Positions 4,122-63,015 of a stretch of DNA of 64,000 bases are shown piece after piece. The notes under the pieces are model-generated. The model worked only from the letters and a program-made list of their open reading frames with translations, was not told where the DNA came from and ran no database searches. How positions within the stretch are numbered: position 1 is the stretch's first letter; each line of letters opens with the position of its first letter. The DNA lies in assembly GCA_017409215.1 (NCBI GenBank), contig JAFQTD010000016.1:5128-69127 (forward strand). Reading direction: 5' to 3'. A program made the position numbers and the translations under genes. This DNA is from Alphaproteobacteria bacterium. GTDB taxonomy: Bacteria > Pseudomonadota > Alphaproteobacteria > Rs-D84.

Positions 4122-5996
4122 ATGAACGACTACTATGTGTCAGAAGCACAAATTAATAAAATAGCAACCCAAATTGAAAATTCTGATGAAAACCCATTGG
4201 AATTATTGTGGGATTTTTATGATACAATTAAATCCATTGACTTTTTTTTGGACTTGAATCCAACCGTTTCAAGATGTTATTTTCAATTATTAAACAAATT
4301 GAACGATGAAGCAATCAAAGATTCTATTCGTACTATTTCTAAAATCAAGCCATCCGTTTTATTGTTTGATGATAAAGGTATACGTGCGTTGGTAAAAAAG
4401 CACCCTGCCCTGACCAATTGGCTGTATAGGCATCTAAAAAAATTAATGACAGAATCAGAAAATTACGATTATATGTATATCAAACAACTATCTGGGATTA
4501 TCATAGCATCTATGGGCAATACGACACAGAAATTATTTAAAGACTTGGCCGGCGTGTCCGAGCATCTTAAAACCGTATTGATTTATGCGGGATTAAACTT
4601 TATTTACAAAAACAAGGCAAATCTTAGAAAAAATATCTTAGTGTTCTTGTGCTCTGCAACAAACAATGCTAATCAAGCGGTTGAAGCATATAAGCTGATG
4701 AATAAAATTATCGCGTACGATAAATCTGCAGCAAGTGCTTTCTTGGATACAATTGAAAAAACACTAAATACCGATATCACAAATAAATCGTTGTTGAAAT
4801 ATATCGTCTTATTACTGTCTGAAATTTATGAACTGCCTGAACACAGAATGCGCACTACAAAACTGTTATTACAGGCACAAAATATGGCCAAAGATGACTT
4901 GCAAACAGTTCGGGTCGCTGCGCGAAAATTGGGTCAGGAAGAATTGCTGTGCAGCAGAATGAAAATTGGACAACGTATAGAATCAGGTAAAGATAATAAC
5001 TGGAAATTCGTCGACTGTATTCCATTGGACACGCCTGCGGTCTTGATACTGGGGGGCGACGGGACAACCAATCCACGGGCTGCCAATGGATATGCAAAAA
5101 GAATATTAGAAAAATTGAAAAAAGAAAACATAACAAATACAAATGTATACAGCATCGTTTATGACTTTGGTGATACAATGATGGGATGCAAGCCACTAAA
5201 TGCAAGAAATATTCAGATGAAAAAATATGGACGAAAAATTATATTGGATGACATCTATACCAAAGAAAACATAAACCCAAATTATATAACAGAACTGTTC
5301 GAAATCGCAATACGACCAAGAATCGAAGAAAACGGAAAAAAATTACCAATTGATGTCGCAATGAAAAATATCAGAAAAATTAACTTTGTGACGCATTGTC
5401 ATGGCGCATATACATTCCAAAAACTGGAAGAAATGATGCAACAAAAAATGACTGATTTGGGCTATTCAAGCGCAGAAAAGAATCAAATCCAAAAACAAAT
5501 GGTATGTATCGCGCATGCACCACATTGCCCATTGGAAAAAGCAAAATCAACGGTAATAAATTTTGCATCTGCCAAGGACTTTGACACAAAACACTATAAT
5601 AAATTTCAAGAAATTCTGCAAAAACTGGATAAAAAACATCAATTGCATTTTTCGTTCTTTTCGGAAAAGTACGGAAATGTTTTTGTCGCACCACAGATAT
5701 ATGACATGTGGTTTCAACGCGATTTTGTCGGATTCGATGTAAACAGACTGGAACACGACTTTACGGATTATGACGACGATTATGAATTATTAACCACAGA
5801 AGGTGTGACAATCAAAAAATTATCTGGGAACGCACTGGTTAACGCAGTTAGAAGCTCTGAAAATAACACGCCTGTCACAAGTGTAAAAAGCCTGACATGT
5901 GAAAACGAAGATAAATTAGCAGAAATATTCGCAACACTGGAAAAAAACGGTGTTGAAATGTATCAACAAATCTTGGAAAAAGCACGCACAAGATAA
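4122..5996 (+). CDS. Hypothetical protein: helical N-terminus plus alpha/beta-hydrolase-like C-terminal domain (HCHGA)
   Basis: Long ORF with motifs LGGDG, THCHGAY, APHCPL and SAKD that are shared with 8980..10422. Confidence 0.7.
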   Translation: MNDYYVSEAQINKIATQIENSDENPLELLWDFYDTIKSIDFFLDLNPTVSRCYFQLLNKLNDEAIKDSIRTISKIKPSVLLFDDKGIRALVKKHPALTNWLYRHLKKLMTESENYDYMYIKQLSGIIIASMGNTTQKLFKDLAGVSEHLKTVLIYAGLNFIYKNKANLRKNILVFLCSATNNANQAVEAYKLMNKIIAYDKSAASAFLDTIEKTLNTDITNKSLLKYIVLLLSEIYELPEHRMRTTKLLLQAQNMAKDDLQTVRVAARKLGQEELLCSRMKIGQRIESGKDNNWKFVDCIPLDTPAVLILGGDGTTNPRAANGYAKRILEKLKKENITNTNVYSIVYDFGDTMMGCKPLNARNIQMKKYGRKIILDDIYTKENINPNYITELFEIAIRPRIEENGKKLPIDVAMKNIRKINFVTHCHGAYTFQKLEEMMQQKMTDLGYSSAEKNQIQKQMVCIAHAPHCPLEKAKSTVINFASAKDFDTKHYNKFQEILQKLDKKHQLHFSFFSEKYGNVFVAPQIYDMWFQRDFVGFDVNRLEHDFTDYDDDYELLTTEGVTIKKLSGNALVNAVRSSENNTPVTSVKSLTCENEDKLAEIFATLEKNGVEMYQQILEKARTR

Positions 5997-19172: not shown

Positions 19173-19248
19173 GGGGACATAGCTCAGTTGGTAGAGCAAA
19201 TGACTTTTAATCATTGGGTCCAGGGTTCGAGTCCCTGTGTCCCCACCA
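19173..19248 (+). tRNA. tRNA-Lys(TTT)
   Basis: GGGGACATAGCTCAGTTGGTAGAGC...CT TTT AA...GGTTCGAGTCC...CCCCACCA. Confidence 0.97.
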
Positions 19249-19419: not shown

Positions 19420-19496
19420 TGGCACGCCCTACAGGATTCGAACCTGTGACCTGCAGATTAGAAATCTGATGCTCTATCCAGCTGAGCTAAGGGCGC
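19420..19496 (-). tRNA. tRNA-Arg(TCT)
   Basis: Reverse complement GCGCCCTTAGCTCAGCTGGATAGAGC...TT TCT AA...GGTTCGAATCC...GCCA. Confidence 0.97.
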
Positions 19497-19598
19497 GTAC
19501 CAGTGTATTTTATACTATTTTTTTTAAATTTCAAGTCCGAAACAATCAACAAAAAATACTTTACATAAAACATACTTTTTTTACTAGGATTATATACA

Positions 19599-19675
19599 GA
19601 ATCATAGTTGTGTTGATTTTCGAACTCCCCGACCGTCGTTTTTCAGACGGTTTTATTAATTTTTAGAGGGAGTAT
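19599..19675 (+). promoter_or_regulatory. Truncated c4-like target/attenuator leader, similar to the 3' half of the 57.8-kb leader
   Basis: GAATCA-N9-TGATT..GAACTCCCCG-ACCGTC..GACGGT, followed by RBS GGGAG that is complementary to CTCCC. Confidence 0.55.
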
Positions 19676-37044: not shown

Positions 37045-38025
37045 TTAATATTTACGGAATAAAAAGTTTTTATGTCCAGACAAGTACCATTGGAACAAAT
37101 GCTGGACATCTTCTGTGGTTAAGTCATACTTTGGTATCCAATTCGCAAACGGGAAATCCCGTGTCATAAAATCATCATACGCACGTCTGCGTGTCGACAA
37201 CAATGCCTGTAAATTTTTGAGTATACTTTTATCAATACCGCTGATATTTTCTGATTTAGACCGCCGTATATCACGCACCGTACTTTTAATCAATGGCATA
37301 TCGGCATAAATATCGCGATATGCCATATACCACATATCGCACTGATGTCGCATTCGGGCGCATAATTCCACAGATTTCTGCAACATCTCAACCGTTGGGC
37401 GTTCATACGCCCGAAGTTGTAAAGTCTGCTGATACACCATTTCACGCTGACCGTCCGATAAACCCATTGTATCCCAACCGGTCTCCACATCTACCCAGAA
37501 CTCAAATTCTGCAAAAACCGCACATCTAATACGTTCGGCCCACAACGACACTTCTTCCATGATATTAAAATACGCAATTGCTTCCAGCATGCCGACAGCA
37601 CCAATCGCACGAATACGACTAACCTGTTCCTGTTTCAAAACGCCCATATTTAATTTTAGTCTGTCACGTTTGTTCGCATAGTCGCGCGCAGCATCTGGTT
37701 CTATAAAGCCGTCCGCCAAGAACCTGTCCCAAAACATTTGAGCCAACTGCTTACCTTCAGCTTTATGCACCTCTTTTAATACAACCAATATATTTTTCAA
37801 ATCCCCCTTGGTTGCGCCATTTACCAGATTTTTAAACATAGCATCCATTTTGGTCATTTTTTGACCATCTTTGGTCTGAACAACTTCGTTCATCTCACGC
37901 AACAAAACATCACTATATCCCGTCTTAGGCTTTGGCGGTCGCCCCATCGGGTTTCCTGAACGTCCCTTTTGAAATTGTCCACTTTTTGGCGGTTTGCGGT
38001 ATCCAACTGTATAATCTTTATTCAT
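37045..38025 (-). CDS. DUF5681 (TerS-like) domain protein with C-terminal extension
   Basis: VGYRKPPKSGQFQKGRSGNPMGRP. Confidence 0.85.
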   Translation of the reverse strand: MNKDYTVGYRKPPKSGQFQKGRSGNPMGRPPKPKTGYSDVLLREMNEVVQTKDGQKMTKMDAMFKNLVNGATKGDLKNILVVLKEVHKAEGKQLAQMFWDRFLADGFIEPDAARDYANKRDRLKLNMGVLKQEQVSRIRAIGAVGMLEAIAYFNIMEEVSLWAERIRCAVFAEFEFWVDVETGWDTMGLSDGQREMVYQQTLQLRAYERPTVEMLQKSVELCARMRHQCDMWYMAYRDIYADMPLIKSTVRDIRRSKSENISGIDKSILKNLQALLSTRRRAYDDFMTRDFPFANWIPKYDLTTEDVQHLFQWYLSGHKNFLFRKY

Positions 38026-39322
38026 TTCTTGCCCCCATCAATAATTCATTATATGTACGTTCCAAACCCACATTCACCGCATTTTTACCCGTCAACTTTT
38101 GCCAGCGCAGTATTGCAACATCAACATACTTGGGTTCTATCTCAATCCCGCGACAAACGCGCCCAACCCGTTCACATGCCAATAAAGTGGTTCCTGAACC
38201 TAAGAATGAATCTAGCACCACATCACCACGGTTAGTCACATCCATAATCGCATCTGCAACCATCTGAACATTTTTCACCGTTGGATGCAGTTTCAAATCA
38301 TCACGATTTTCACCAAAACTGTTTACCCCCGGATAATCCCAAACATTTGTACGATAACGACCATTCGCCCCAAGTTCCACATTGTTGATATGTGGCGCAC
38401 GACCATTTTTATAAACAAATATCAGTTCATGCTTTGACCGATATAACGATCCCATACCCCCAGACGCCTTATTCCACACGCACAGATTCTTCATTTCTGT
38501 ATAAACATCATCACAGGCTGCTGTAATCTCTATAATATGTCGCCAATCCATGCACAAATAATGCAACGAACCATCAACAGACCAATCACGCAGATTTGTA
38601 AATGCCGTCCGCAGGAATTGTGTAAACTGCTCACGCGACATTTCGCCAGATGCCATCGCAAATTCATCATGATGTACACGTCCTGCACCACATACATGTC
38701 CATCAACAGGTACATTATATGGCGCATCTGCAAACACCATCTGGGCAAGAAGGCCATCAGACATCAGCTTTTCAAAACTTTCGCATTTTAATGCATCACC
38801 GCAATAAATCAAATGCTGGCCCAATCGCCACAAATCCCCAGGGCGCGAAACAATGTGTCCATTATCAACATCCGGCATATCATCGGCATGGTCATACTCC
38901 ATCAAGTCATCATTTTGTCCCTGAATCAAAACATCTAATTCGGCCGTTTCAAAACCAATAACATCCAGGTTAAAGTCCAAATCAGACAAATCTTTCAGTT
39001 CCAGCCCCAACAAATCCCTGTCCCAATCACCATTTATCGTCAGTTGATTGTCTGTTATACGATATGCGCGCTTTTGGGCATCTGTCAAATAATCAATCCG
39101 TACACATGGCACAGAATCCAAACCTAACTTTTTAGCCGCCAATAAACGCCCATGCCCCGTTAACAAGACATTATCTTCATCAACCAGCAACGGATTAGTA
39201 AAATCAAATTCAGTAATAGAATTTGCAATTTGACAAACGTGTTTATCGTTATGCAATCGCGCATTACGAGAATACGGTCTAATATCACATGGGTTTTGAT
39301 ATATAATTTTTAATTCTGTCAT
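38018..39322 (-). CDS. ParB-like domain plus N6/N4 DNA methyltransferase
   Basis: PY.RNAR.H; GHGRL.AA; DAPYN; HPTVKN; DSFLGSG. Confidence 0.9.
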   Translation of the reverse strand: MTELKIIYQNPCDIRPYSRNARLHNDKHVCQIANSITEFDFTNPLLVDEDNVLLTGHGRLLAAKKLGLDSVPCVRIDYLTDAQKRAYRITDNQLTINGDWDRDLLGLELKDLSDLDFNLDVIGFETAELDVLIQGQNDDLMEYDHADDMPDVDNGHIVSRPGDLWRLGQHLIYCGDALKCESFEKLMSDGLLAQMVFADAPYNVPVDGHVCGAGRVHHDEFAMASGEMSREQFTQFLRTAFTNLRDWSVDGSLHYLCMDWRHIIEITAACDDVYTEMKNLCVWNKASGGMGSLYRSKHELIFVYKNGRAPHINNVELGANGRYRTNVWDYPGVNSFGENRDDLKLHPTVKNVQMVADAIMDVTNRGDVVLDSFLGSGTTLLACERVGRVCRGIEIEPKYVDVAILRWQKLTGKNAVNVGLERTYNELLMGARNE

Positions 39323-39641
39323 ACATATTCCTTTCTTTATCAAACATATTCACCAGAAAGGAAGTACATAATATGTACGGAATAGCAAGGAAAGGCAAAA
39401 AATGCCTTGTACACATTATGACATCCTTTCCTTTACTTTCCGAAACCATCATACACAAAACACGCGAACAAAGCAAGAAAAACCGCAGTTTTCTGCGGCT
39501 TTGAAAAGAGAATCTCTTTTTTTATTTTTTATAGAAATATCACCCTGATAATTCCCTGTTTTTATAAAAGCGCCCCAAATAAAGCCGACATAAAAAATAT
39601 CTTCAACATAAATTTTTTTACTAATTTCTGCAGGGTAAAAC

Positions 39642-39670
39642 TTGAATAAGAACATATTCTATGATAGAAT
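39642..39670 (+). promoter_or_regulatory. Sigma70-type promoter of the structured leader
   Basis: TTGAAT-17bp-TAGAAT. Confidence 0.7.
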
Positions 39671-39850
39671 CGGTGCGATGCATGGGATCATCTTGCATTG
39701 GGGTGTAGTAACCCATTTACGAGCGTCTGCAGAGACGATAAAAACTCCAACCATATTTGGTTGGAGGGTTGTGAATATATTGAATAAGCAACACAATTCT
39801 CGTAAATTGTTACTAACCTCCAACCACCAATCCCATTTGGTGGTTTTTAA
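39671..39850 (+). ncRNA. Structured c4/CI-like antisense RNA plus attenuator leader (candidate)
   Basis: Multiple hairpins; TAGTAAC and ATTTACGAG are complementary to downstream CTCGTAAAT-T-GTTACTA; GGTTGGAGG/CCTCCAACC overlaps the terminator AACCACCAA..TTGGTGGTT-TTT. Confidence 0.65.
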
Positions 39851-39870
39851 CTGATACGGAGGATACGTAC

Positions 39871-40359
39871 ATGTCGCAATTTTTTATAAAAACATTCATT
39901 GCCTATGCGCTGGTTCTAATTCTTTCTGGATGCGGCATGGGGCCAGGATACGAATTAAAATATACTGATGGCGCATACAAATGCACCTATCAAGAAAACG
40001 TCAATTATTTGATAAATGATAAATACTTTGAAATATCTGACTATGAAAATGACAAAAATAAAGCACAATCTGCGTGCAAATCTATTCAGAAAAAATTAAA
40101 AAACAAGCATAGATGTCTGGATTATGTAGAAATTGATTCACTAAACAAACAGTCATACATCGGGATATTCTTTGCCAACCGCCTTTATCAACAATGTATC
40201 GCAAACGACAATGATGACTGCCTAAAATATTACCCTTTTGCAGACTGTATAGCTGCTAAATGCACATATAAATCACAAAAAATAAAATACCAAAAATACA
40301 AACAAGAAGATTGGATATCTGATGACGATTGGTCTGCTTGCACGCAACAACACCTATAA
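39871..40359 (+). CDS. Cys-rich lipoprotein
   Basis: Lipobox LSGC; GGAGG RBS. Confidence 0.75.
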   Translation: MSQFFIKTFIAYALVLILSGCGMGPGYELKYTDGAYKCTYQENVNYLINDKYFEISDYENDKNKAQSACKSIQKKLKNKHRCLDYVEIDSLNKQSYIGIFFANRLYQQCIANDNDDCLKYYPFADCIAAKCTYKSQKIKYQKYKQEDWISDDDWSACTQQHL

Positions 40360-52407: not shown

Positions 52408-53673
52408 ATGCTTTTAACAATTGTTGATAAAAACATTAATCAAATTAAACCATATAAAAACAACCCAAAACTTCACAGTAAACATCAGATTAAACAGATT
52501 GCGGATTCTATTAAAGAATTTGGATTTGTGAACCCTGTGTTGTTGGATGAAAATGGGGAAATCATAGCTGGACATGGACGATATTTGGCTGCAAAACAGT
52601 TAAATATGGAAAATATCCCCACAATAACACTGTCTCATTTAAATGATGAGCAGAAACGTCTGTATCGCATTGCCGATAACAAACTGACCGAATTAGGCAA
52701 ATGGGATGTGTCTTTGTTGCAAATGGAATTTAAAGAACTGGAAAATTTAAATCTGGATCTAGAAATTACAGGGTTTGAAACCGAAGAAATAGATAACTTT
52801 ATTATAAATAAGTCTGGTCCTACAAATCTGAAAGAAGAACATATCCCAGAATTATCAACTAACGATTACCAATGCAAATTTGGTGATATATGGCAATTGG
52901 GTCGACATTTCCTTATTTGTGGTGATGCATTAAAAGCGAAAACGTATGCAAATTTAATAGGAAACAATCGTGCCCAAATGATTTTAACAGATCCACCATA
53001 TAATGTCCGTGTAAAAGATATTGGTTCAAGCGGTAAAATTAAGCATGATGAATTTGCGATGGCATCTGGCGAGATGTCATCTGATGAATTCATCACGTTT
53101 TTAAATACATTTATGAAACATGCAAAAGAATATTCCATCGATGGTTCTTTGCATTACTTGTTTATGGATTGGCGACACGGAATAGAAATTGGTCTGGCCG
53201 CATCAATCGTTTATGAAGAATTAAAAAACATCTGCGTTTGGGTCAAAAACAATGGTGGTATGGGCAGCCTGTATCGTTCACAGCATGAATTGTGCTTTAT
53301 ATACAAAAACGGCAAAGGCCCACATACGAATAATATAAATCTGGGGGCGCATGGGCGATATCGCACAAATGTTTGGGAATACGCAGGTGCCAATGGTTCC
53401 GCAGATGGTAAAGAAAATTTAAAATTACACCCAACGGTTAAGCCCGTTGCAATGTTAAAAGATGCAATTCTGGATGTCACAAAACGTGGCAATATTGTAT
53501 TGGATTGCTTCTTGTGGTCTGGTTCAACCTTAATCGCATGCGAACAAACAGGTCGTACATGTTATGGCATCGAAATAGAACCAAAATATTGTGATGTGAC
53601 AATTAAACGTTATGAAGAACTAACCGGTGAAAAAGCCATAAAAATAGGAGATGCAGATGACAGGATATGCTAA
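52408..53673 (+). CDS. ParB-like domain plus N6/N4 DNA methyltransferase
   Basis: AGHGRY.AA; DPPYN; HPTVKP; the SAM motif reads FLWSG. Confidence 0.9.
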   Translation: MLLTIVDKNINQIKPYKNNPKLHSKHQIKQIADSIKEFGFVNPVLLDENGEIIAGHGRYLAAKQLNMENIPTITLSHLNDEQKRLYRIADNKLTELGKWDVSLLQMEFKELENLNLDLEITGFETEEIDNFIINKSGPTNLKEEHIPELSTNDYQCKFGDIWQLGRHFLICGDALKAKTYANLIGNNRAQMILTDPPYNVRVKDIGSSGKIKHDEFAMASGEMSSDEFITFLNTFMKHAKEYSIDGSLHYLFMDWRHGIEIGLAASIVYEELKNICVWVKNNGGMGSLYRSQHELCFIYKNGKGPHTNNINLGAHGRYRTNVWEYAGANGSADGKENLKLHPTVKPVAMLKDAILDVTKRGNIVLDCFLWSGSTLIACEQTGRTCYGIEIEPKYCDVTIKRYEELTGEKAIKIGDADDRIC

Positions 53674-55500: not shown

Positions 55501-56139
55501 TTATTTTGGCATATGTTTATGTATACATGCGTTATGCAAATCACTAATCAAATTCTTGCCAGTATAAGATTTTATAAACCGTTTAAATTGGTCTATTTGT
55601 TTAATAAAATCATCACATGATATAAAATATGAATAATCATGTTTAGAAAAAGCATCAAATACAATCATATCTATTTCTTTGTTGTGCTTTTTTATCCACT
55701 GATATACTGTTTCAAAATCTATATATAAAAACATATGATTTGTGGCCGCGCCGTGTATTTCGCGCATTGATAGAAAACCACTAAAAATCCTGGTTTTATC
55801 TGCTAGTTTTATTTGTGGAGCAATATTTACATTTTTCATATATAAAAAACTGTCATTTTTACAATCTGGCAATTTCATAATACTCGTATCGTTTTTACCC
55901 GGCGGACAAATATAAATAGGTATCAGTATTTTTGATCGCAACAACGTCGCTATGAAATACGCCAAACTTTCATCATCTTTGAACACGTTATATTCTGCTA
56001 ATGCACTGGCCAATGTCCCATTAAAATAATCGGTATTATTTTCTTGGTGAATAATACAGTAATCAAATTCATATTCGAAATCTTTAAAATGGCTCTCGTC
56101 CAATACATATTCTGTTAAAGTTTTTCGTATGTTTGTCAT
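55501..56139 (-). CDS. Hypothetical protein, possibly SseB-like
   Basis: ILIP...F.S..EI pattern; weak similarity only. Confidence 0.55.
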   Translation of the reverse strand: MTNIRKTLTEYVLDESHFKDFEYEFDYCIIHQENNTDYFNGTLASALAEYNVFKDDESLAYFIATLLRSKILIPIYICPPGKNDTSIMKLPDCKNDSFLYMKNVNIAPQIKLADKTRIFSGFLSMREIHGAATNHMFLYIDFETVYQWIKKHNKEIDMIVFDAFSKHDYSYFISCDDFIKQIDQFKRFIKSYTGKNLISDLHNACIHKHMPK

Positions 56140-56140
56140 A

Positions 56141-56638
56141 TTATTTTTCCAAATTTATGCCACATTCTGTATAGCACTTTTTCCAATCAAATCGCGATGA
56201 TTTATATTTTTTGTTTAATTTTGCATTTTCTTCTTTGGTAATCCATACGGTTTTCAAATTATTCAAAACATATTTAACACTTTTATCATCATCCATAAAA
56301 GCATGAAATAATTCAGATAACGGCACACAGTGTTCCAATATTAAATCTTTCAATTTCGGGAAATCTTTTTGATTTGTGCGTTTTTTGCCGACCAATAAAT
56401 TATGCAAATCCCCATTTATACCAGATTTGCACCAAATATTTTGCGCCGATACCGATATAAAATCTGCCGGTCTTGATTCAGAAATCACATACAATATATT
56501 GCGAAATGATAATTTTACAATTTTCTTTGCGTTATCACTTGCTTTACGATATGTATCACGCAGATTATTCAATAGTAAATCTACATCTTTATCAGTAAAT
56601 TTATTCGCCGGTTTGCTTATTGTTATTTGTGGTTTCAT
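56141..56638 (-). CDS. Hypothetical protein with HNH-like motif
   Basis: LEHCVP...WITKEEN..LN. Confidence 0.6.
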   Translation of the reverse strand: MKPQITISKPANKFTDKDVDLLLNNLRDTYRKASDNAKKIVKLSFRNILYVISESRPADFISVSAQNIWCKSGINGDLHNLLVGKKRTNQKDFPKLKDLILEHCVPLSELFHAFMDDDKSVKYVLNNLKTVWITKEENAKLNKKYKSSRFDWKKCYTECGINLEK

Positions 56639-57113
56639 GGTTCTCTGCCGCTTGTTTTTCTTGCCATTTTTTATATTCTGGATTTGGAATCTGGGATTCT
56701 ATCATCTTTAACTTTCGAATAGTTTTCTTTGTGCCTATCGTATTGTAATAAGTATAAGTTCCATCTAATACCATACAATATGCCCCAAATGTAACCGTAT
56801 ATCCATCATACAATTTTTTTGATTCTGTTTTCCAGTCTTTTTCGCCTATAACCTGTCGCATATCGGTTGCAAAAACTTCGCCACCAAACATCTGTTGCCG
56901 TCGTGCCTTGCATGAACGTGCCACATCTGTGTCGCCATCTGCCGGATGACAATAATATAATTGAATCAAAGAATACTTGTCATTCACTTGAAATACTTTT
57001 AATTCATGACTTGGAAAGCAATCTGGATTGCGTATGGTTTTTGGAGGAACCGGTTGTGTTGTTAAACCAACACAAGAACACAATAACAAACCTAATAAAA
57101 TTACTTTCTTCAT
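56601..57113 (-). CDS. Lipoprotein
   Basis: Lipobox LCSC. Confidence 0.7.
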   Translation of the reverse strand: MKKVILLGLLLCSCVGLTTQPVPPKTIRNPDCFPSHELKVFQVNDKYSLIQLYYCHPADGDTDVARSCKARRQQMFGGEVFATDMRQVIGEKDWKTESKKLYDGYTVTFGAYCMVLDGTYTYYNTIGTKKTIRKLKMIESQIPNPEYKKWQEKQAAENHETTNNNKQTGE

Positions 57114-57115
57114 AT

Positions 57116-57793
57116 TTAATCCTTTTTGTTTTTGGGTGGAATTTCTATAAACAATGATTTGAATTGTCCGTATTTATCGCCAGTATCGCAAAAATCTTGC
57201 CATTGAAAATTATAGGCATTTTGCATAAACAAATCTGGTTTATCTTTAAGATGTTTGGAATTGGTGTCATTTTTTACATTCCACTTATGCCATCCAGACA
57301 TTTTTTCGCCTTCAGTTGTCCTGAATGCATATGCCATAGAATTTGGGTTGCTTTTTGCACACCAAAACGACTTGTTGTTCGAGATAAAAATGCATACGCC
57401 TGATTTTGCGTATCCTTTATCAATTAACCATTCAATGCGATTTATATCTGCCCATACATGGTAACAATTATCATCGTTTCCCTTGTGATCTGCCAACAGG
57501 TCTGATACAGGTATTTTTGTATTTTCATAAAGTTTTTCTGATTTTATCGGTCTGGTTTTATATTTCAATTCTATGGGGTAAAAATCGCCGTCTTTGATGA
57601 CCATTATATCTATGTGAATAATGCGTTGTTCGCCTGGCTTTTTAATTGGAAATTCCAAAATTATTTGTGCAGCATTATTGAATATCTTGTGTAATTCAAT
57701 TGCTAATGAATGTTGAAAATCTGCTTCCGAGACAAAGAACCTTTGTCTACTTATGCTAGAAAATGCTTCTTTAATTCCGCTGATTACATCCAT
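57116..57793 (-). CDS. PD-(D/E)XK-like nuclease-fold protein
   Basis: SEADFQ..LA; E.P; IDI; IELKY. Confidence 0.65.
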   Translation of the reverse strand: MDVISGIKEAFSSISRQRFFVSEADFQHSLAIELHKIFNNAAQIILEFPIKKPGEQRIIHIDIMVIKDGDFYPIELKYKTRPIKSEKLYENTKIPVSDLLADHKGNDDNCYHVWADINRIEWLIDKGYAKSGVCIFISNNKSFWCAKSNPNSMAYAFRTTEGEKMSGWHKWNVKNDTNSKHLKDKPDLFMQNAYNFQWQDFCDTGDKYGQFKSLFIEIPPKNKKD

Positions 57794-58033
57794 CTTTATC
57801 CCCGCATAAAATGTTGACCGCCAACTAAGAATCGGCGGCCGGGGAGTTCCTAATCAGTTTATCATTGATTCCGTGGCTTTCGGGTTGCCCCTATTGTATG
57901 GCGCACGACTCCCCGACCATAACGTCAGGGACATTACGGTGCAAAAAGCACCGAAACATCAGTAATAACGATGCTTTCGCACCGGATAAACGGGCTAGGA
58001 CAGCCCCGAACCCAACTCTCATTGGATTCACCG
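57794..58033 (-). ncRNA. Structured c4/CI-like antisense RNA plus attenuator leader (candidate)
   Basis: GC-rich hairpins including GAAA and GCAA tetraloops; loop TCCTA and GTTTATC are complementary to downstream GATAAAC-TGAT-TAGGA; GGTCGGGGAGT/ACTCCCCGGCC stem. Confidence 0.7.
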
Positions 58034-58035
58034 AA

Positions 58036-58064
58036 AACATACCTTAAAACAATATAAAAATCAA
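58036..58064 (-). promoter_or_regulatory. Sigma70-type promoter of the structured leader
   Basis: TTGATT-17bp-TATGTT on the minus strand. Confidence 0.55.
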
Positions 58065-58082
58065 GTTATTATAACAACGAAT

Positions 58083-59525
58083 CTAGCATTTTGCATATTT
58101 AATGTATTTATAAGAAGAATGTGTTTGAATAAACGCGTTGATGTGTTTATTAATTATTTCCTTAGGTATAGAATATATATCGTTCATTACGCCATTTATA
58201 AATGCACCGGCTAATATACCATAAACATTTTGCAATGCTAATTCATCATTTGCGATTGCATAATATTTACCGTTATTTTTCTTATGCGATTTTGGGTGAA
58301 CTATTACGTTGCGTATTTCGCACAAAGCGTTACCCAGATTTTTATCTTGTTTTTGGGAATATTTTAGTATGCGTTTTATTTTTGTTTTCCATGATGTTGA
58401 TAAATTTTCTGAAACAAAACCATCTATATCATTGTTTTTAGGTTTCCCTCGTAAGTTTTGTAAAGTTTCTATATAAGAAATCAACATTACATAATCTTTT
58501 TGACCAATTATCGACTGATGCTCGTTCAACATATCTTCAATTCCTGTAATCAAATTATGCCAACCAGGTTCGTCATAGACACTTAACCACCTGTTAATTG
58601 ATGTATTTAACAAATTATTATCTTTATTTATTACAAAATCCCTTATGGTTATTGGCATAAAAACATGTGATAATTTTTTATGATTATGCACAGAAGAATA
58701 AGCAAAATCCCTGCAAAGCATAGGATATGCTTTGTGATATATTTTGTCATTTCTATCGTGTTTCACAACATCAATCCAGCTAAAATTTATACCTATCTTA
58801 CAATCTACTAAAAATTCTAAAAACAACCGCAACTTATGTTCAAGCATTCTATAAATAGAGAATTTGTTATAACCTGACTTTATATGAATAGCAATATTCG
58901 TGTGGAGACGTTTTAATAAATTATATTTGTTTTCATCTAAGAATGGTTGAATATGCTTTTTAAATGAATTTATAATATTATTAGATTCTGCAGAAAAAGA
59001 ACAAATGATATCATCAAAATCATCAGCGGAATAAATGGTATGAGCTGTTGCATTCACTATTTTAAGCGAAATTTGTGTTTTACCTATTACAACTGGTATT
59101 TGTGCAAATTTCACCATAGAACTAACGTTTTTATTTGTAGACAAAAATTGATAGAAATTGTCATCATAGTCTATATATAAGCCACTTATTATAAAATTTT
59201 TTAGTAAATCACCAAAAACAATTGCTCTAGCAGATCCTGTAACAAATTCTGAAAAGACGAGATGCATACTCATTCCAGAACGTTGTAAAAACACTTCAAA
59301 TAATGTAATCGGTACGGTTTCTTCTCCATGACGAATTATACCATGCATTATACGTAAAGATTTATTAACAAGTGGTTTTGCATCTGTATTAAACACCGAG
59401 ATTTGAATCCCTGTTTCTGGAGAATAACTCAATTTGCCAGAAAATTCCTTACCCGGTTTATTTGGCATCCAAAAAGTGCCTATCCATTCATAATTTTTAT
59501 GATGATCTAAATCCAAAGTCGACAT
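58083..59525 (-). CDS. ApeA-like HEPN domain protein
   Basis: N-terminal G.FW.P......SG.LSY.P..GI resembles the ApeA NTD; HEPN RNVIVH (Rx4H). Confidence 0.75.
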   Translation of the reverse strand: MSTLDLDHHKNYEWIGTFWMPNKPGKEFSGKLSYSPETGIQISVFNTDAKPLVNKSLRIMHGIIRHGEETVPITLFEVFLQRSGMSMHLVFSEFVTGSARAIVFGDLLKNFIISGLYIDYDDNFYQFLSTNKNVSSMVKFAQIPVVIGKTQISLKIVNATAHTIYSADDFDDIICSFSAESNNIINSFKKHIQPFLDENKYNLLKRLHTNIAIHIKSGYNKFSIYRMLEHKLRLFLEFLVDCKIGINFSWIDVVKHDRNDKIYHKAYPMLCRDFAYSSVHNHKKLSHVFMPITIRDFVINKDNNLLNTSINRWLSVYDEPGWHNLITGIEDMLNEHQSIIGQKDYVMLISYIETLQNLRGKPKNNDIDGFVSENLSTSWKTKIKRILKYSQKQDKNLGNALCEIRNVIVHPKSHKKNNGKYYAIANDELALQNVYGILAGAFINGVMNDIYSIPKEIINKHINAFIQTHSSYKYIKYAKC

Positions 59526-59536
59526 ATTTTTAATGA

Positions 59537-60079
59537 TTATTTATCAGTTGGAACCGGTAACCCAAATTTTTGTAATGGAATATATTCAAAATAATACGAA
59601 CAACCGACAGATACGATGTAATCTAATACATCTTGATAGCATGGCTGTTTGAACCAGTCACTTAACAGGTAGATATATTCGACTTCCATGTTCAGTTGTG
59701 CCAACAATTTTTTATATTGCTTTTTCTTAAAATCGCATGTTTGTAATTTTTCGTCTACAGAACCGGCAACACGTTGAAACTTACATTCAATAACAAAAAA
59801 CGTATTGTTTATAACAACATAGATAGAATCATCTGGCAAAAGTTTTTTAGATAATATGGATTTCCAATCGATACCACGATATTCTAAGAATTTATATAAT
59901 GCCGTTTTCTTAAAGATAGATGCTACTTCTTCGCCTTTGTATAAAACAGAAACCCAGCCACGTTTATCATCAATGCAACTGTATCCTGGTTGGGAACACA
60001 AAAAAGTGCGTAAATCGGTTTTCCCTTCAAAAACTAAACCCGTTTTGGTATTTGCACCACCAATTCCATTCGCTTTCAT
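59537..60079 (-). CDS. Putative type II restriction endonuclease (PD-(D/E)XK)
   Basis: LLPDD...IECKFQ..AGSVDEKLQT; coupled to two MTase genes. Confidence 0.7.
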   Translation of the reverse strand: MKANGIGGANTKTGLVFEGKTDLRTFLCSQPGYSCIDDKRGWVSVLYKGEEVASIFKKTALYKFLEYRGIDWKSILSKKLLPDDSIYVVINNTFFVIECKFQRVAGSVDEKLQTCDFKKKQYKKLLAQLNMEVEYIYLLSDWFKQPCYQDVLDYIVSVGCSYYFEYIPLQKFGLPVPTDK

Positions 60080-60861
60080 TTTTTATCCTTTTTTTCAGAT
60101 ACATCATAGAGTCTTTTTTCCGCCAGGTCAACAAATTGTGGCTCTTGGTCTATACCCACAAATAGACGACCATGCTTTAATGCTGCAACGCCTGTGGTAC
60201 CGCTGCCCATAAACGGATCCAAAATTAAGTCACCAGGGTTTGTTGATGCCAAAATAATGCGTTCCAATAAATCAACCGGTTTTTGCGTTGGATGTTTGCC
60301 GAACTTCTTTTCTTCCTTGGTGGGTGTGCCAATAGCCCAAACACTTCGCATTTGGCAACCCGGCTTTTTAATGAAGTCCTTTGGAAAAACACCGTTTTTC
60401 ATCGCTTCATAATTAAAAGTGTGTTTAGCCTTTTTGTTTTTGCGCGCCCATAGCAAAGTTTCGTGACTGGCGGTAAAATACCGGCAGGACATATTAGGAC
60501 TGGCGTTTGGCTTAAACCAAGTAATGTCGTTCAAAATATGAAAACCGAGTAATTGCATGGCAAAACCGCACGAATATATACTGTGATATGTACCACTAAC
60601 CCACAATGTGCCGTTTGGTTTCAAGATACGATGACAGGCACAGAGCCATTTTTTATGAAATTCAAAATCATCACTCAGACCATGTGATTTATCCCAATCA
60701 CCTTTGTTCACGGATACAACACAGCCATTTTGGCATGTGATGCCACCATTGGAAAGCAGGTACGGCGGATCCGCAAAAATCATATCAAATGTATTTTCTG
60801 GAAGTTCGAGCAACTTTTCAAGGCAATCTGCACAATAAAGACGATACTGCTTCTTAGTCAT
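60076..60861 (-). CDS. Beta-class N6/N4 DNA methyltransferase (DpnA-like)
   Basis: FADPPY.LSNGG; HPTQKP; DPFMGSGTT. Confidence 0.9.
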   Translation of the reverse strand: MTKKQYRLYCADCLEKLLELPENTFDMIFADPPYLLSNGGITCQNGCVVSVNKGDWDKSHGLSDDFEFHKKWLCACHRILKPNGTLWVSGTYHSIYSCGFAMQLLGFHILNDITWFKPNASPNMSCRYFTASHETLLWARKNKKAKHTFNYEAMKNGVFPKDFIKKPGCQMRSVWAIGTPTKEEKKFGKHPTQKPVDLLERIILASTNPGDLILDPFMGSGTTGVAALKHGRLFVGIDQEPQFVDLAEKRLYDVSEKKDKK

Positions 60862-61786
60862 AATTTGTAATCAATAATTCACGAATTGCATCACGACCAT
60901 CAGCCTTGGAATTTATAAGACGTTTAGCCAAAATACGGTTAATTTTATAATCTTTGTACAAATCATCAAAGAACGGGTCTTCAATATAATTTGTTGGATC
61001 TGAATTGCTTAACATCTGTAAAGCTCCTGTTTGATGACATTTATCAAAGACCTGTTTCAAACGTTCTTGTTCTGCGTCATCAAAATCACCGACAGCATAA
61101 GAATTAAAAGATGATGTTTCACGAATTGGACGATATGGAGGGTCGTAATAAATGAATGTATCAGCTTTTACATAATCTGGTGTAGCACCAAAGTCTGCCT
61201 GCATAATAGTAGCAATTTGCAAAGCTTCAGACACGTTGCGCAAGTTTTCTTCATCCAAAATACGCGGGTTTGTATATTTGCCCATCGGAACATTGAATTT
61301 GTTTTTACTGTTTACGCGGAACAATCCATTAAAGCATGTCCGATTCAAGAATATCGTTAGGGCAGCGCGGCGAACAAAACTTGTACGGTATACATTGGCA
61401 TCTATGTTCTTATCAAGGTCATTATATTCGTCGCGCCTTGCATAATAATATGCCTTTGTGTCATCTGTATGTCTGTATTCAGTTTGAATCTTGGTCAGCT
61501 CAACAATCAAACTTTCAACATCGCATTTTATAACGTTGTAAAGAATCACCAGTTCCGGATTGATATCAAACAAGAAGGCTTCTTGGATATTATACCGATT
61601 ATATATATCAAAGAATACAGCACCGCCACCAACAAATGGTTCAATATAGCGTTTAATGCCGTTCATTTTTAATTTTAATGGGAGTTTTTGTTCGATTTGT
61701 TCCAACAATTGCCCTTTGCCGCCGGCCCACTTCAAAACAGGGCGGCATTCTGTATAATCTGGCAATCTGACTGGTATTGCTATCAA
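60854..61786 (-). CDS. Dam/DpnM-like adenine DNA methyltransferase
   Basis: LKWAGGK; EPFVGGG; LNRTCFNGL.RVN; DPPY. Confidence 0.92.
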   Translation of the reverse strand: MIAIPVRLPDYTECRPVLKWAGGKGQLLEQIEQKLPLKLKMNGIKRYIEPFVGGGAVFFDIYNRYNIQEAFLFDINPELVILYNVIKCDVESLIVELTKIQTEYRHTDDTKAYYYARRDEYNDLDKNIDANVYRTSFVRRAALTIFLNRTCFNGLFRVNSKNKFNVPMGKYTNPRILDEENLRNVSEALQIATIMQADFGATPDYVKADTFIYYDPPYRPIRETSSFNSYAVGDFDDAEQERLKQVFDKCHQTGALQMLSNSDPTNYIEDPFFDDLYKDYKINRILAKRLINSKADGRDAIRELLITNYD

Positions 61787-61848
61787 AATTCATCCTTTCT
61801 TTACCGTTATATTAGAAGAAAATAATAGATAAAATCAAGGTCTTTATT

Positions 61849-61884
61849 AACTTGACTTTCGGCGACTTTAGAGCGGTAATTGCG
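61849..61884 (+). promoter_or_regulatory. Island-conserved promoter motif, copy 2
   Basis: AACTTGACT-N14-AGCGGTAATTGC. Confidence 0.65.
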
Positions 61885-61904
61885 TGACGCTAAAAGGAGT
61901 TGAT

Positions 61905-62330
61905 ATGTCATATAAAGACAAACTACCAAAGACGATGGAAGTGCTAAAAGCTTTGCCGTTTGATGAACGGGCACGATTATGGGATAAATACTCACAACAC
62001 CCGTTCAAACGGCAAATGCGGTCACTTTGGTATTATATTCAATGCGACAGGTTAAATCTTCAAATTGAACATAAATATTTGGTAAAAATTCGTAAATATA
62101 AGGATAATCCAGAACAATGTTTAGACCATGCATGTCCAAATAAGTATAACTTTGTTCCTGGCACAATTTTAACCAGATATTTCAAGGGCATAAAACACAC
62201 TATCTTAGTCAATGATGACGGCAGTTTTTCTTATAACGGTGATAAATATTCAACATTATCGGCCGTTGCAACAAAGATAGCAGGCATGAAACTATCTGGG
62301 CCAAAATTTTTTAATCTAACCATAAAATGA
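61905..62330 (+). CDS. DUF2924 domain protein
   Basis: Homologous to 41868..42353 (LWYYIQC; PGT.L.R; TLSAVA..I.G...SGP.FF). Confidence 0.85.
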   Translation: MSYKDKLPKTMEVLKALPFDERARLWDKYSQHPFKRQMRSLWYYIQCDRLNLQIEHKYLVKIRKYKDNPEQCLDHACPNKYNFVPGTILTRYFKGIKHTILVNDDGSFSYNGDKYSTLSAVATKIAGMKLSGPKFFNLTIK

Positions 62331-63015
62331 CATTTTTGATGTATGGTATTAATTCTTCCATAAGACTTGATTGTTTGAATTCTACACCCGTATGGCTTTC
62401 CGCATTATTACCGCTACCGTCATCATAAATTTCTACAGTTGTAGAGGTATGAACTTTTATAAAGTAAAGCCCAGTGCGTAGTAATGCGTATCGTATAGTA
62501 TTTATATCTGCAGGAATTTTTAGTTGTTTTATAAAATTTTCTCTGTCTTCTCGCCATAATTTGTGATTTTCACACTCGTATATCTCTGTAACGCCATTTT
62601 TAACAACCACTGATGTTTCATCAGAATGTTTAGGTTGAGGGTTTAAAATGGGCCAGAGATCATAAGCGATAACTTTTATTTCTTCTTCTGTTAATCCTTC
62701 TAAAATTTGAGCAAATTTTAAAAAGTTTTGAGCAGTTAATTTATTATTGTTATGCAAACCTGCGATCATGGCACATAGTAGGCGTAAATTATTTTTAGCA
62801 ATTCCTTCCATAGCATCTTTCTGCAATCTGTAACTTATCCCCACTAAATCATCACTATCAACATTAGAAAAATCTCCTTGTCTTATTTCTGATAAAATAA
62901 CCTCCCTTAACATTGTTATTTTCTTCTTTTTATACTTATTCCAAAAAAATTCAACCCCCCTTGCTAAAGGATTATTTGTAAGTTTATCTATTGTGCTTAG
63001 AAAGTTCATAATCAC
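62311..63015 (-). CDS. Hypothetical protein inserted between DUF2924 and the recombinase
   Basis: 234-aa ORF with AGGAG RBS. Confidence 0.65.
   Translation of the reverse strand: MIMNFLSTIDKLTNNPLARGVEFFWNKYKKKKITMLREVILSEIRQGDFSNVDSDDLVGISYRLQKDAMEGIAKNNLRLLCAMIAGLHNNNKLTAQNFLKFAQILEGLTEEEIKVIAYDLWPILNPQPKHSDETSVVVKNGVTEIYECENHKLWREDRENFIKQLKIPADINTIRYALLRTGLYFIKVHTSTTVEIYDDGSGNNAESHTGVEFKQSSLMEELIPYIKNVILWLD

Follow-up and report, generated by a model that had tools for sequence, protein, structure and literature searches.

A probable c4/a1b1-type RNA module with private two-segment codes in gene leaders of an alphaproteobacterium

Introduction

What kind of RNA occupies the 289 nucleotides (nt) at 57794-58082 that separate an ApeA-like HEPN gene from an open reading frame (ORF) of 225 aa in a 64,000-nt stretch of Alphaproteobacteria bacterium (lineage Rs-D84)? 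The stretch, hereafter the window, covers positions 5,128 to 69,127 of the forward strand of contig JAFQTD010000016.1 (GenBank assembly GCA_017409215.1), and the gap is read as a leader on the minus strand. An original prediction, made from the letters of the window, had described it as a c4/CI-like antisense switch with a promoter, a series of hairpins and short complementarities, all of which are present on the minus strand. Here we report that the leader is very probably a module of the c4/a1b1 type, as found in the immI region of phage P1, and that it is one of about 28 complete modules in its genome.

The upstream part of the phage P1 module has a family of its own in Rfam, c4-a1b1 (RF03163; Weinberg et al. 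2010, PMC2864571). The a1b1-type site has been equated with seqA of phage P4 and with IsrK of Gifsy-1, within what is described as an IsrK/seqA/CI paradigm (PMC4825925). A second RNA of interest is sRNA-Xcc1, identified as a discrete 88-nt RNA in Xanthomonas campestris by Northern blot and end mapping (PMC2996969). It has been reported to precede symE in integron cassettes of Xanthomonas and an ORF6N gene in APSE phages, and to lie next to isrK and C4 annotations in Xylella.

Results

Two distant segments of the leader are complementary in every complete copy

Read in the order of transcription, the leader holds two hairpins (HP1 and HP2), a single-stranded tail, a variable hairpin region (HP3), a three-way junction of stems P1, P2 and P3, a terminator-like hairpin and the Shine-Dalgarno (SD) sequence of the first downstream gene (Table 1). 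Two segments of the upstream part return as complements in the junction. Segment a1, UCCUA (58000-57996), is the exact complement of a′, UAGGA (57852-57848), and segment b1, GUUUAUC (57991-57985), is the exact complement of b′, GAUAAAC (57863-57857). The base of the terminator-like hairpin overlaps the 3′ strand of stem P1, an overlap that had been predicted for a GCCGCC/GGCGGT hairpin before the ribosome binding site (RBS) and is seen here at 57840-57816. When the whole gap was folded, promoter included, its energy was -106.7 kcal/mol (z = -5.1), which was equalled by 0 of 200 shuffles.

The leader belongs to a family. A whole-leader profile searched with nhmmer against the genome (1.13 Mb, 37 contigs) found 19 full-length copies, termed class I, together with fragments, and a pattern for the stem P1 sequences GGUUGGAGG/CCUCCAACC found eight more divergent copies, termed class II. 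One of the latter is the leader at 39.7 kb of the window, which had been predicted to have the same element order with other recognition sequences; this was right, the copy lying on the plus strand. One more divergent copy is found at C18:19226, where the partner segments are cognate by eye. The genome thus contains about 28 complete modules, counts that are based on nhmmer and patterns and are lower bounds. A search with the Rfam model of sRNA-Xcc1 gave 13 sub-threshold matches in the same genome. The order and spacing of promoter, module, terminator, SD sequence and ATG are kept in the copies that were aligned or read. In every class I copy the junction is succeeded by a hairpin, with a U6-8 tract in most paralogues and a weak U tract in the studied copy.

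The same two contacts recur in every copy: a1 (5-7 nt, in the HP2 loop) with J3/1, the strand between P3 and stem P1, and b1 (7-9 nt, in the tail) with the P3 loop. Their letters vary from copy to copy. In an alignment of the 19 class I copies, a structure that includes both long-range helices has 93.1% of its cells in standard pairs, compared with 79.7% in shuffles, and the observed value was reached by 0 of 500 shuffles on any of five measures. This control overstates the case, as the paralogues are related; a slide control and the number of pair types are independent of kinship. When the 3′ partners were moved by 1-3 columns, only 34-51% of cells were paired, and the a/b pairs show up to five pair types each. 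The a1:a′ helix is 96.8% paired with two-sided change at 3/5 pairs, and the b1:b′ helix (helices 5-6) shows two-sided change at 7/7 pairs. The local stems are preserved too: HP1 (helices 1-2) has 88.6% and 88.9% of cells paired with two-sided change at 4/9 pairs, HP2 (helix 3) 90.3%, and the terminator hairpin (helix 10) 96.8% with two-sided change at 4/5 pairs. Within the junction, stem P1 is paired in 99.4% of cells, P2a in 88.5% (two-sided change at 6/7 pairs) and P3 in 100%.

Each copy carries its own code. With an anchored score of a+b complementarity, cognate partners of the class I copies averaged 13.97 (minimum 12.5) and the 342 non-cognate pairs 6.93 (maximum 12.0), the own partner being the unique best in 19/19 copies in both directions. 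An earlier, unanchored score, which compared 110 nt with 34 nt and accepted G-U pairs, failed to discriminate (diagonal 13.6, off-diagonal 10.8) and was replaced by the anchored one. Duplex energies gave means of -15.5 kcal/mol for cognate and -4.5 kcal/mol for non-cognate pairs, with the own partner the most stable in 18/19 rows and 19/19 columns. All eight class II copies are also cognate on the correct strand. The natural covariation with different specificities that had been suspected from two leaders is therefore borne out across both classes. Segment a is common to groups of copies (48/342 non-cognate pairs score at least 5) and segment b is nearly unique (12/342 score at least 6). Their combination is unique, no two of the 19 class I copies having both segments alike.

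Codes in relatives and in contigs from RNA libraries

The junction pattern was found at 16 places in the genome itself, in 20/36 further genomes from its genus (each 0.6-1.1 Mb) and in 1/24 genomes from other genera of the order. One relative, G019, has 27 pattern matches, no two of which have both segments alike by eye. Twelve loci from relatives were read by eye; ten are cognate, one (L037) matches only in a and one (L038) is clearly mismatched. L038 is a complete leader in relative G020 (C14:126338-126560), with a1/b1 of CGCUA/ACUUUGUC against UGAGA/AAGAUACU in its own junction, and may be a recombinant or decaying copy. Two of two viral-contig loci are likewise cognate by eye. A narrower pattern found 72 stretches in public contigs, labelled Candidatus Enterousia (32), Alphaproteobacteria (28), proteobacteria (6) and otherwise (6), these being counted by pattern and label. 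According to published work, Ca. Enterousia of the order Rs-D84 comprises uncultured gut bacteria whose genomes are reduced (PMC12306168), and we infer that the organism of the window falls within it.

Assembled contigs of four RNA-library runs, which may hold DNA, cover the leader in parts. One of them spans 57549-58077, which takes in the leader and the beginning of the cargo gene, and differs from the window there in 43 letters and 4 gaps. In this contig UGGUA/UACCA replaces UCCUA/UAGGA and ACUUCAUU/AAUGAAGU replaces GUUUAUC/GAUAAAC, so that full complementarity is preserved in both contacts. Of the 47 differences, at least 11 fall inside the 25 recognition bases (Fisher p = 1.5e-6), and P2 also differs considerably. 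The same code as in this contig was found in a relative (L045) in front of a different cargo. L045 was considered as an orthologue of the studied locus and rejected, the leader alone being in common (77% identity) and the cargo not.

The module has the topology of phage P1 a1-b1-c4

The sole Rfam match of the leader was to sRNA-Xcc1 (RF02221), at 36.7 bits over model positions 1-87 (E = 1e-4 in 701 nt, 0.0093 in the whole window), which is below the gathering score of 53; its paralogues scored 24.5-40.4 bits, again below 53. The studied junction shares the sRNA-Xcc1 topology, namely stem P1, a P2 with an AUACAAYA/GAA internal loop and a tetraloop hairpin, and a P3 with a variable loop. The C4 model (RF01695) had no match within 57600-58300 at E up to 10 or in 12 paralogue loci at E up to 1; the c4-a1b1 model (RF03163) had none on the studied leader at E up to 10, and the isrK model none on the leader or its paralogues. 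Rfam, named as a check in the original prediction, holds a relative of the junction, matched below cut-off, as well as a family for the upstream site of phage P1; the condition under which that prediction would lose its novelty, a strong match to an Rfam family described in this context, applies in part.

Phage P1 itself scored 68.8 bits with C4, 51 bits with c4-a1b1 (gathering score 46.7) and 35.1 bits, below cut-off, with isrK. Its record annotates a1 (7 nt), b1 (8 nt), a 77-nt c4 RNA, a2 and b2, followed by icd and ant. From the sequence and the Rfam alignments, b′ (CACUAAC) of phage P1 lies in the P3 loop and a′ (CUGUCAA) in J3/1, while a1 lies in the loop of the second a1b1 hairpin and b1 in the tail of that hairpin. 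The studied leader has the same arrangement. Its recognition segments GAUAAAC and UAGGA occupy the P3 loop and the P3-P1 strand, and two hairpins stand upstream. The loop of the second carries a1 and the strand that immediately follows it on the 3′ side carries b1, each being complementary to the junction. Judged by sequence and topology, the junction is thus the apparent counterpart of the c4 antisense RNA and the upstream hairpin that of the a1b1/seqA-type site. The c4/CI-like architecture of the original prediction stands insofar as the topology equals that of phage P1 a1-b1-c4, but the roles are reversed, the downstream junction being the c4-like part.

Further likenesses with the immI region of phages P1 and P7 are the promoter, the further hairpin between the a1b1 hairpins and the three-way-junction RNA, the length of the segments (7 and 8 nt in phage P1, 5-7 and 7-9 nt here) and a specificity that varies between relatives. 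Unlike immI, the studied modules have no detectable a2/b2 target overlapping the RBS of the next gene, have an intrinsic terminator after the junction and carry a cargo other than icd/ant; they occur in a gut alphaproteobacterium, and about 28 copies are found per 1.13-Mb genome where a phage has one. When an a2/b2-like site (score at least 12) was sought from the junction to the first 150 nt downstream, 3/19 cognate and 15/342 mismatched combinations had one, the matches being A/T-rich. The c4 RNA of phage P1 is matured at its 5′ end by RNase P from a longer transcript.

Two other systems invite comparison. In P4 immunity (CI, seqA, seqC) an antisense RNA embedded in the leader and a complementary upstream site are likewise on the same transcript, and, going by the published description, the output is premature transcription termination and the antisense RNA comes from the terminated or processed leader itself (PMC4825925). 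However, the studied modules have no seqC-like downstream site and no link to satellite or replication genes. The isrK model (RF01394, Salmonella Gifsy-1) aligns to the a1b1 region of phage P1 and the terminator-like hairpin that follows it (35.1 bits), and IsrK is therefore an a1b1-type RNA; HP3 of the studied leader, which is of variable length among paralogues, takes the position of that terminator-like hairpin after a1b1 in phage P1 and IsrK. IsrK is described as acting on its own read-through mRNA via alternative folds (PMC4825925), a point of likeness, but it works with orf45-anrP translation, which has no counterpart in the studied modules.

Canonical sRNA-Xcc1 in viral contigs

The link to sRNA-Xcc1 was followed in viral contigs, of which at least 106 matched a motif of the Rfam consensus. 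Of nine viral loci scanned, seven carry sRNA-Xcc1 at 65-78 bits. In canonical viral loci (e.g. L121, L126 and L128 among L120-L225) a small hairpin lies upstream, its loop complementary by eye to J3/1 and its tail to the P3 loop. With a two-segment score of at least 12 as the threshold, a cognate upstream site was present in 70/91 distinct loci versus 55/728 mismatched controls, and a cognate downstream site, often next to the RBS, in 47/91 loci versus 16/728 controls. Five of eight tested proteins encoded downstream are AntA, P22-antirepressor or KilA-N. The canonical members differ from the studied modules in that their upstream site ends in a strong terminator of its own (by eye), in the frequent second site by the RBS, in preceding antirepressor genes and in their score (65-78 versus 36.7 bits). 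On these sequence comparisons the sRNA-Xcc1 family looks like an antisense RNA of the c4 class that belongs to antirepressor modules of prophages, though it stands outside the Rfam C4 clan. A literature search on sRNA-Xcc1 and C4 antisense did not find this link, and supplements such as Additional File 1 of PMC2864571 may bear on it.

Alternative folds of the leader

A second helix competes for stem P1. The C-rich strand of helix X can pair with the 5′ strand of stem P1, and the two are mutually alternative as both use that strand. In the 19 copies 97.7% of the cells of helix X are pairable, versus 33-62% when slid, and nested minimum-energy folds form it in 16/19 copies. The nested minimum-energy structure is predicted to be an 'extended' state, in which a1 and b1, together with GGGG of HP2, are paired to a′, b′ and a CCCC stretch on the 3′ strand of stem P1. 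The alternative 'modular' state contains a pseudoknot and lies outside what such folding programs can score. A comparable arrangement was seen by eye in phage P1 (L228 3325-3352), where ACGCCC just upstream of c4 is pairable with GGGCGU in the 5′ strand of the outer stem of c4. The 3′ strand of stem P1 (CUCCCC) might also act as an anti-SD sequence towards GGGAG of the RBS, a lead for which at least four such pairs occur in only 6/19 minimum-energy folds.

Cargo genes, neighbourhood and other features of the window

Modules sit before about 22 unrelated cargo genes across the genome, and a cargo ORF follows in 21/22 modules examined. About 18/22 of the first genes start with a signal-like hydrophobic segment by a simple hydropathy measure. 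A Pfam scan of nine first-gene proteins identified a YadA-anchor adhesin and a PLD-like nuclease, and the other seven matched no family. None of the copies examined is followed by an antirepressor or replication gene, and a blastn search of the studied leader against phage and plasmid records gave no match. A satellite-like island family with immunity groups, as first proposed, is therefore not borne out, the modules standing before about 22 unrelated, mostly signal-bearing genes; among the copies examined none stands before an antirepressor or replication gene, and none shows signs of a satellite or immunity region. The four cargo ORFs of the studied leader gave no match above cut-off in Pfam, NCBIfam or PADLOC, and in the 225-aa product a D...ELK motif was noticed by eye.

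Within the leader itself, the loop of HP1 is GGGA in most paralogues and GAGA in the studied copy. A transcript of the leader would start near 58029. A small ORF (57891-58040, 49 aa) was considered and rejected, its start falling inside the -10 box and the length of HP3 varying among paralogues. Upstream of the leader, a defence-like run on the minus strand (58083-63015) encodes the ApeA-like HEPN protein, a PD-(D/E)XK_11 protein, an N6/N4 DNA methylase and a D12-class adenine methylase, and a further type II methylase is encoded at 52408-53673 on the plus strand. No tandem repeats were found in 57600-58300.

Other members of the family were inspected as well. The class II module at 39.7 kb has the a/b code UAGUAA/AUUUACGAG, a two-segment score of 16 on the plus strand and 0 on the other, and precedes a lipoprotein-like 162-aa ORF (39871-40359). 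A class I remnant of the window adjoins tRNA genes (19173-19245 and 19423-19496) and precedes a 51-aa ORF with a signal-like start; a cognate a1b1 for it was searched for across the genome and not found. Elsewhere in the genome, a tandem pair of class II modules (C6:34270-34700) has a promoter, code and terminator for each module and no ORF between them, the only gene being one for a small helix-turn-helix-like protein after the second. Tandem sRNA-Xcc1 copies described in Xylella resemble this pair (PMC12189769). Finally, a leader at 39340-39470 (minus strand), before a ParB-like/methylase ORF (38018-39343), was not placed in the studied family by nhmmer; its complementarities AAAGGAAAGG/CCUUUCCUU and CUUCCUUUCU/AGAAAGGAA could mask the RBS of that ORF.

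Table 1. Features of the studied leader, its neighbouring genes and other modules of the window (coordinates of the window)
Feature	Position	Strand	Description
Putative sigma-70 promoter	58036-58064	-	TTGATT-17-TATGTT; -35 at 58064-58059, -10 (TATGTT) at 58041-58036
HP1	58008-58029	-	9-bp hairpin GAAUCCAAU/AUUGGGUUC, GAGA loop
HP2	57992-58006	-	5-bp hairpin GGGCU-GUCCU-AGCCC; a1 in loop
b1	57985-57991	-	single-stranded tail directly 3′ of HP2
HP3 region	57937-57984	-	alternative pairings GGUGC/GCAUC and CGGUGC/GCACCG; CGGTGCGAAAGCATCG flagged as terminator-like in scan
Helix X	57910-57931	-	C-rich UCCCUGAC (57931-57924) pairable with GUCGGGGA (57917-57910), the stem P1 5′ strand
c4-like three-way junction (sRNA-Xcc1-like)	57830-57917	-	placed by Rfam RF02221 alignment and 19-copy covariation
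Stem P1	57917-57909 with 57846-57838	-	GUCGGGGAG pairs with CUCCCCGGC
P2	within junction	-	conserved internal loop AUACAAUA/GAA
P2b	about 57891-57882	-	GGG-GCAA-CCC
P3	57870-57852	-	loop carries b′
J3/1	57852-57848	-	carries a′; strand between P3 and stem P1
Terminator-like hairpin	57806-57840	-	GGCCGCC...GGCGGUC (57840-57816), 11 pairs, 6 of them G-C; tail AACATTTTAT, weak U tract
SD sequence and start codon of first cargo gene	57791-57803	-	GGGGA (57803-57799), ATG (57793-57791)
Cargo	55501-57793	-	four co-directional ORFs of 225, 170, 165 and 212 aa; first at 57116-57793
ApeA-like HEPN gene	58083-59525	-	Pfam ApeA_NTD1, E = 2.4e-8; RNVIVH motif
Class II module	39642-39873	+	promoter TTGAAT-17-TAGAAT, called by scan
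Class II module, a1	39706-39711	+	
Class II module, b1	39715-39723	+	
Class II module, stem P1	39759-39768	+	GGUUGGAGG
Class II module, b′	39799-39807	+	
Class II module, a′	39810-39815	+	
Class II module, terminator	39824-39848	+	
Class II module, start codon	39871	+	ATG
Class I remnant	19596-19656	+	3′ half only (P3, J3/1, stem P1 3′ strand) and terminator; partial nhmmer match C10:24723-24783

Discussion

How would such a leader act? It is rather likely that the leader of this four-gene operon is built like the immI region of phage P1 and brings about autogenous attenuation of its cargo. The regulatory steps, which we infer by analogy with c4, P4 CI/seqA and IsrK, are more tentative, and a little more likely wrong than right. 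The a1b1 site would be promoter-proximal, with the c4-class antisense domain following about 70 nt further on and then the terminator, SD sequence and cargo. The junction would give rise to a separate RNA of about 90-120 nt that accumulates, its ends set by processing at the base of stem P1 and/or by the terminator. Pairing of this RNA with a1b1 over 13 bp, either within one transcript or between sister transcripts that share a promoter, would decide between two exclusive folds: a modular fold in which stem P1 is closed, and an extended fold in which helix X holds the 5′ strand of stem P1 while a1b1 and the GGGG of HP2 pair with b′a′ and the CCCC of the stem P1 3′ strand. The choice of fold would set read-through of the terminator and the start of translation, so that pairing might switch the gene either on or off, and the private a/b code would prevent cross-talk among the about 28 loops of a cell.

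Several observations weigh against this explanation or against its details. No Rfam family reaches its cut-off on the studied leader, whose promoter is weak (8/12 in a consensus scan, below the calling threshold) and was accepted because its position agrees with better TTGCAA-17-TATAAT boxes in the alignment of paralogues, that being its sole support. The covariation of helix X is not significant (52/500 shuffles were as high), and stem P1 is absent from the minimum-energy fold in 19/19 copies, forcing it at a cost of 1.6-20.5 kcal/mol. Stem P2a also varies freely, and the variability of a/b alone is therefore no proof of selection for new specificities. In addition, as the code of the RNA-library contig recurs in L045 on other cargo, exchange of entire leaders and rapid substitution are equally likely explanations of that contig. 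The RNA-library contigs show no transcript ends, strand, level or processing. As to action in trans, nothing found here shows it, the partner of every complete module lying in cis, and the two orphan halves tested have no partner elsewhere in their own genome. A partner for L038 was sought across the G020 genome, and only the elements' own reverse complements and one likely chance match were found. Lastly, there is no detectable a2/b2 at the RBS, and the mechanism of phage P1 is therefore not simply transferable.

The lack of partners outside the own transcript would equally suit a purely cis-acting, compact pseudoknotted leader (e.g. a sensor of protein, ligand or temperature), from which no RNA is released to act in trans and in which a and b are tertiary 'staples' and the differences between copies are neutral compensatory drift. 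The partners always share a transcript (19/19 class I, 8/8 class II and, by eye, C18:19226), the orphan halves have no partner elsewhere and no second target lies at the RBS. Unconstrained stems such as P2a covary freely too, and the minimum-energy folds use a1:a′ and b1:b′ as intramolecular helices. However, the junction has a relative in sRNA-Xcc1, which exists in Xanthomonas as a free RNA of 88 nt (PMC2996969), and the topology of the junction is that of c4, a processed trans-acting RNA. The ORF-less tandem module at C6:34270-34700 resembles an RNA gene more than a leader, and neither among the 19 class I copies nor, by eye, among the 27 G019 matches are any two alike in both segments. We regard a cis-only leader as somewhat unlikely.

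It is improbable that the modules are independent genes for trans-acting small RNAs, with distant mRNA targets, unrelated downstream genes and an upstream complement that serves as decoy or maturation aid. The terminator directly after the junction and the ORF-less tandem copy would suit such genes, as would the target predictions published for sRNA-Xcc1 homologues (PMC12189769). Against this stand the preserved order and spacing from promoter through module, terminator and SD sequence to ATG, with a cargo ORF after 21/22 of the modules examined; the two orphan halves tested also lack a second genomic site, although no systematic target search of all copies was made. That the leader is an RNA antitoxin or regulator of the neighbouring HEPN gene, as the original prediction had offered as an alternative, is hardly credible, for although the gene is adjacent and carries an ApeA_NTD1 domain and RNVIVH motif upstream, the module lies downstream of it with a promoter of its own and points away towards the next operon, other copies stand beside unrelated genes, and the tandem repeats expected of a type III toxin-antitoxin system are lacking.

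Returning to the c4/a1b1-type reading, the kind of element is already known, as c4 with a1b1 and as sRNA-Xcc1. The novelty lies in a divergent clade that has multiplied to about 28 copies within a reduced genome, has become attached to genes for secreted proteins of the host and has lost the a2/b2 site. A phage device known as one copy per phage is thus found in about 28 copies before genes for host secreted or surface proteins, and the 13-nt address of each copy makes a natural set of orthogonal RNA-RNA pairs, possibly a new layer of gene control in an uncultured gut lineage. Since the modules have no a2/b2, they isolate the interaction of a1/b1 with c4, whose role is still annotated as 'putative' in phage P1, and make this open question testable. 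For sRNA-Xcc1, which has been discussed as a virulence-linked small RNA with predicted distant targets, there is now a concrete c4-class reading.

A further step, speculative and quite unlikely on present evidence, would be that a gut alphaproteobacterium with a reduced genome has domesticated a phage c4/CI immunity RNA into about 20-30 orthogonal self-sustaining switches, each a private and heritable ON/OFF state for one secreted or surface gene. If so, the terminated leader RNA would keep the transcripts of its own promoter terminated, as in P4 immunity, and the outcome would be an RNA-based phase variation without any change to the DNA.

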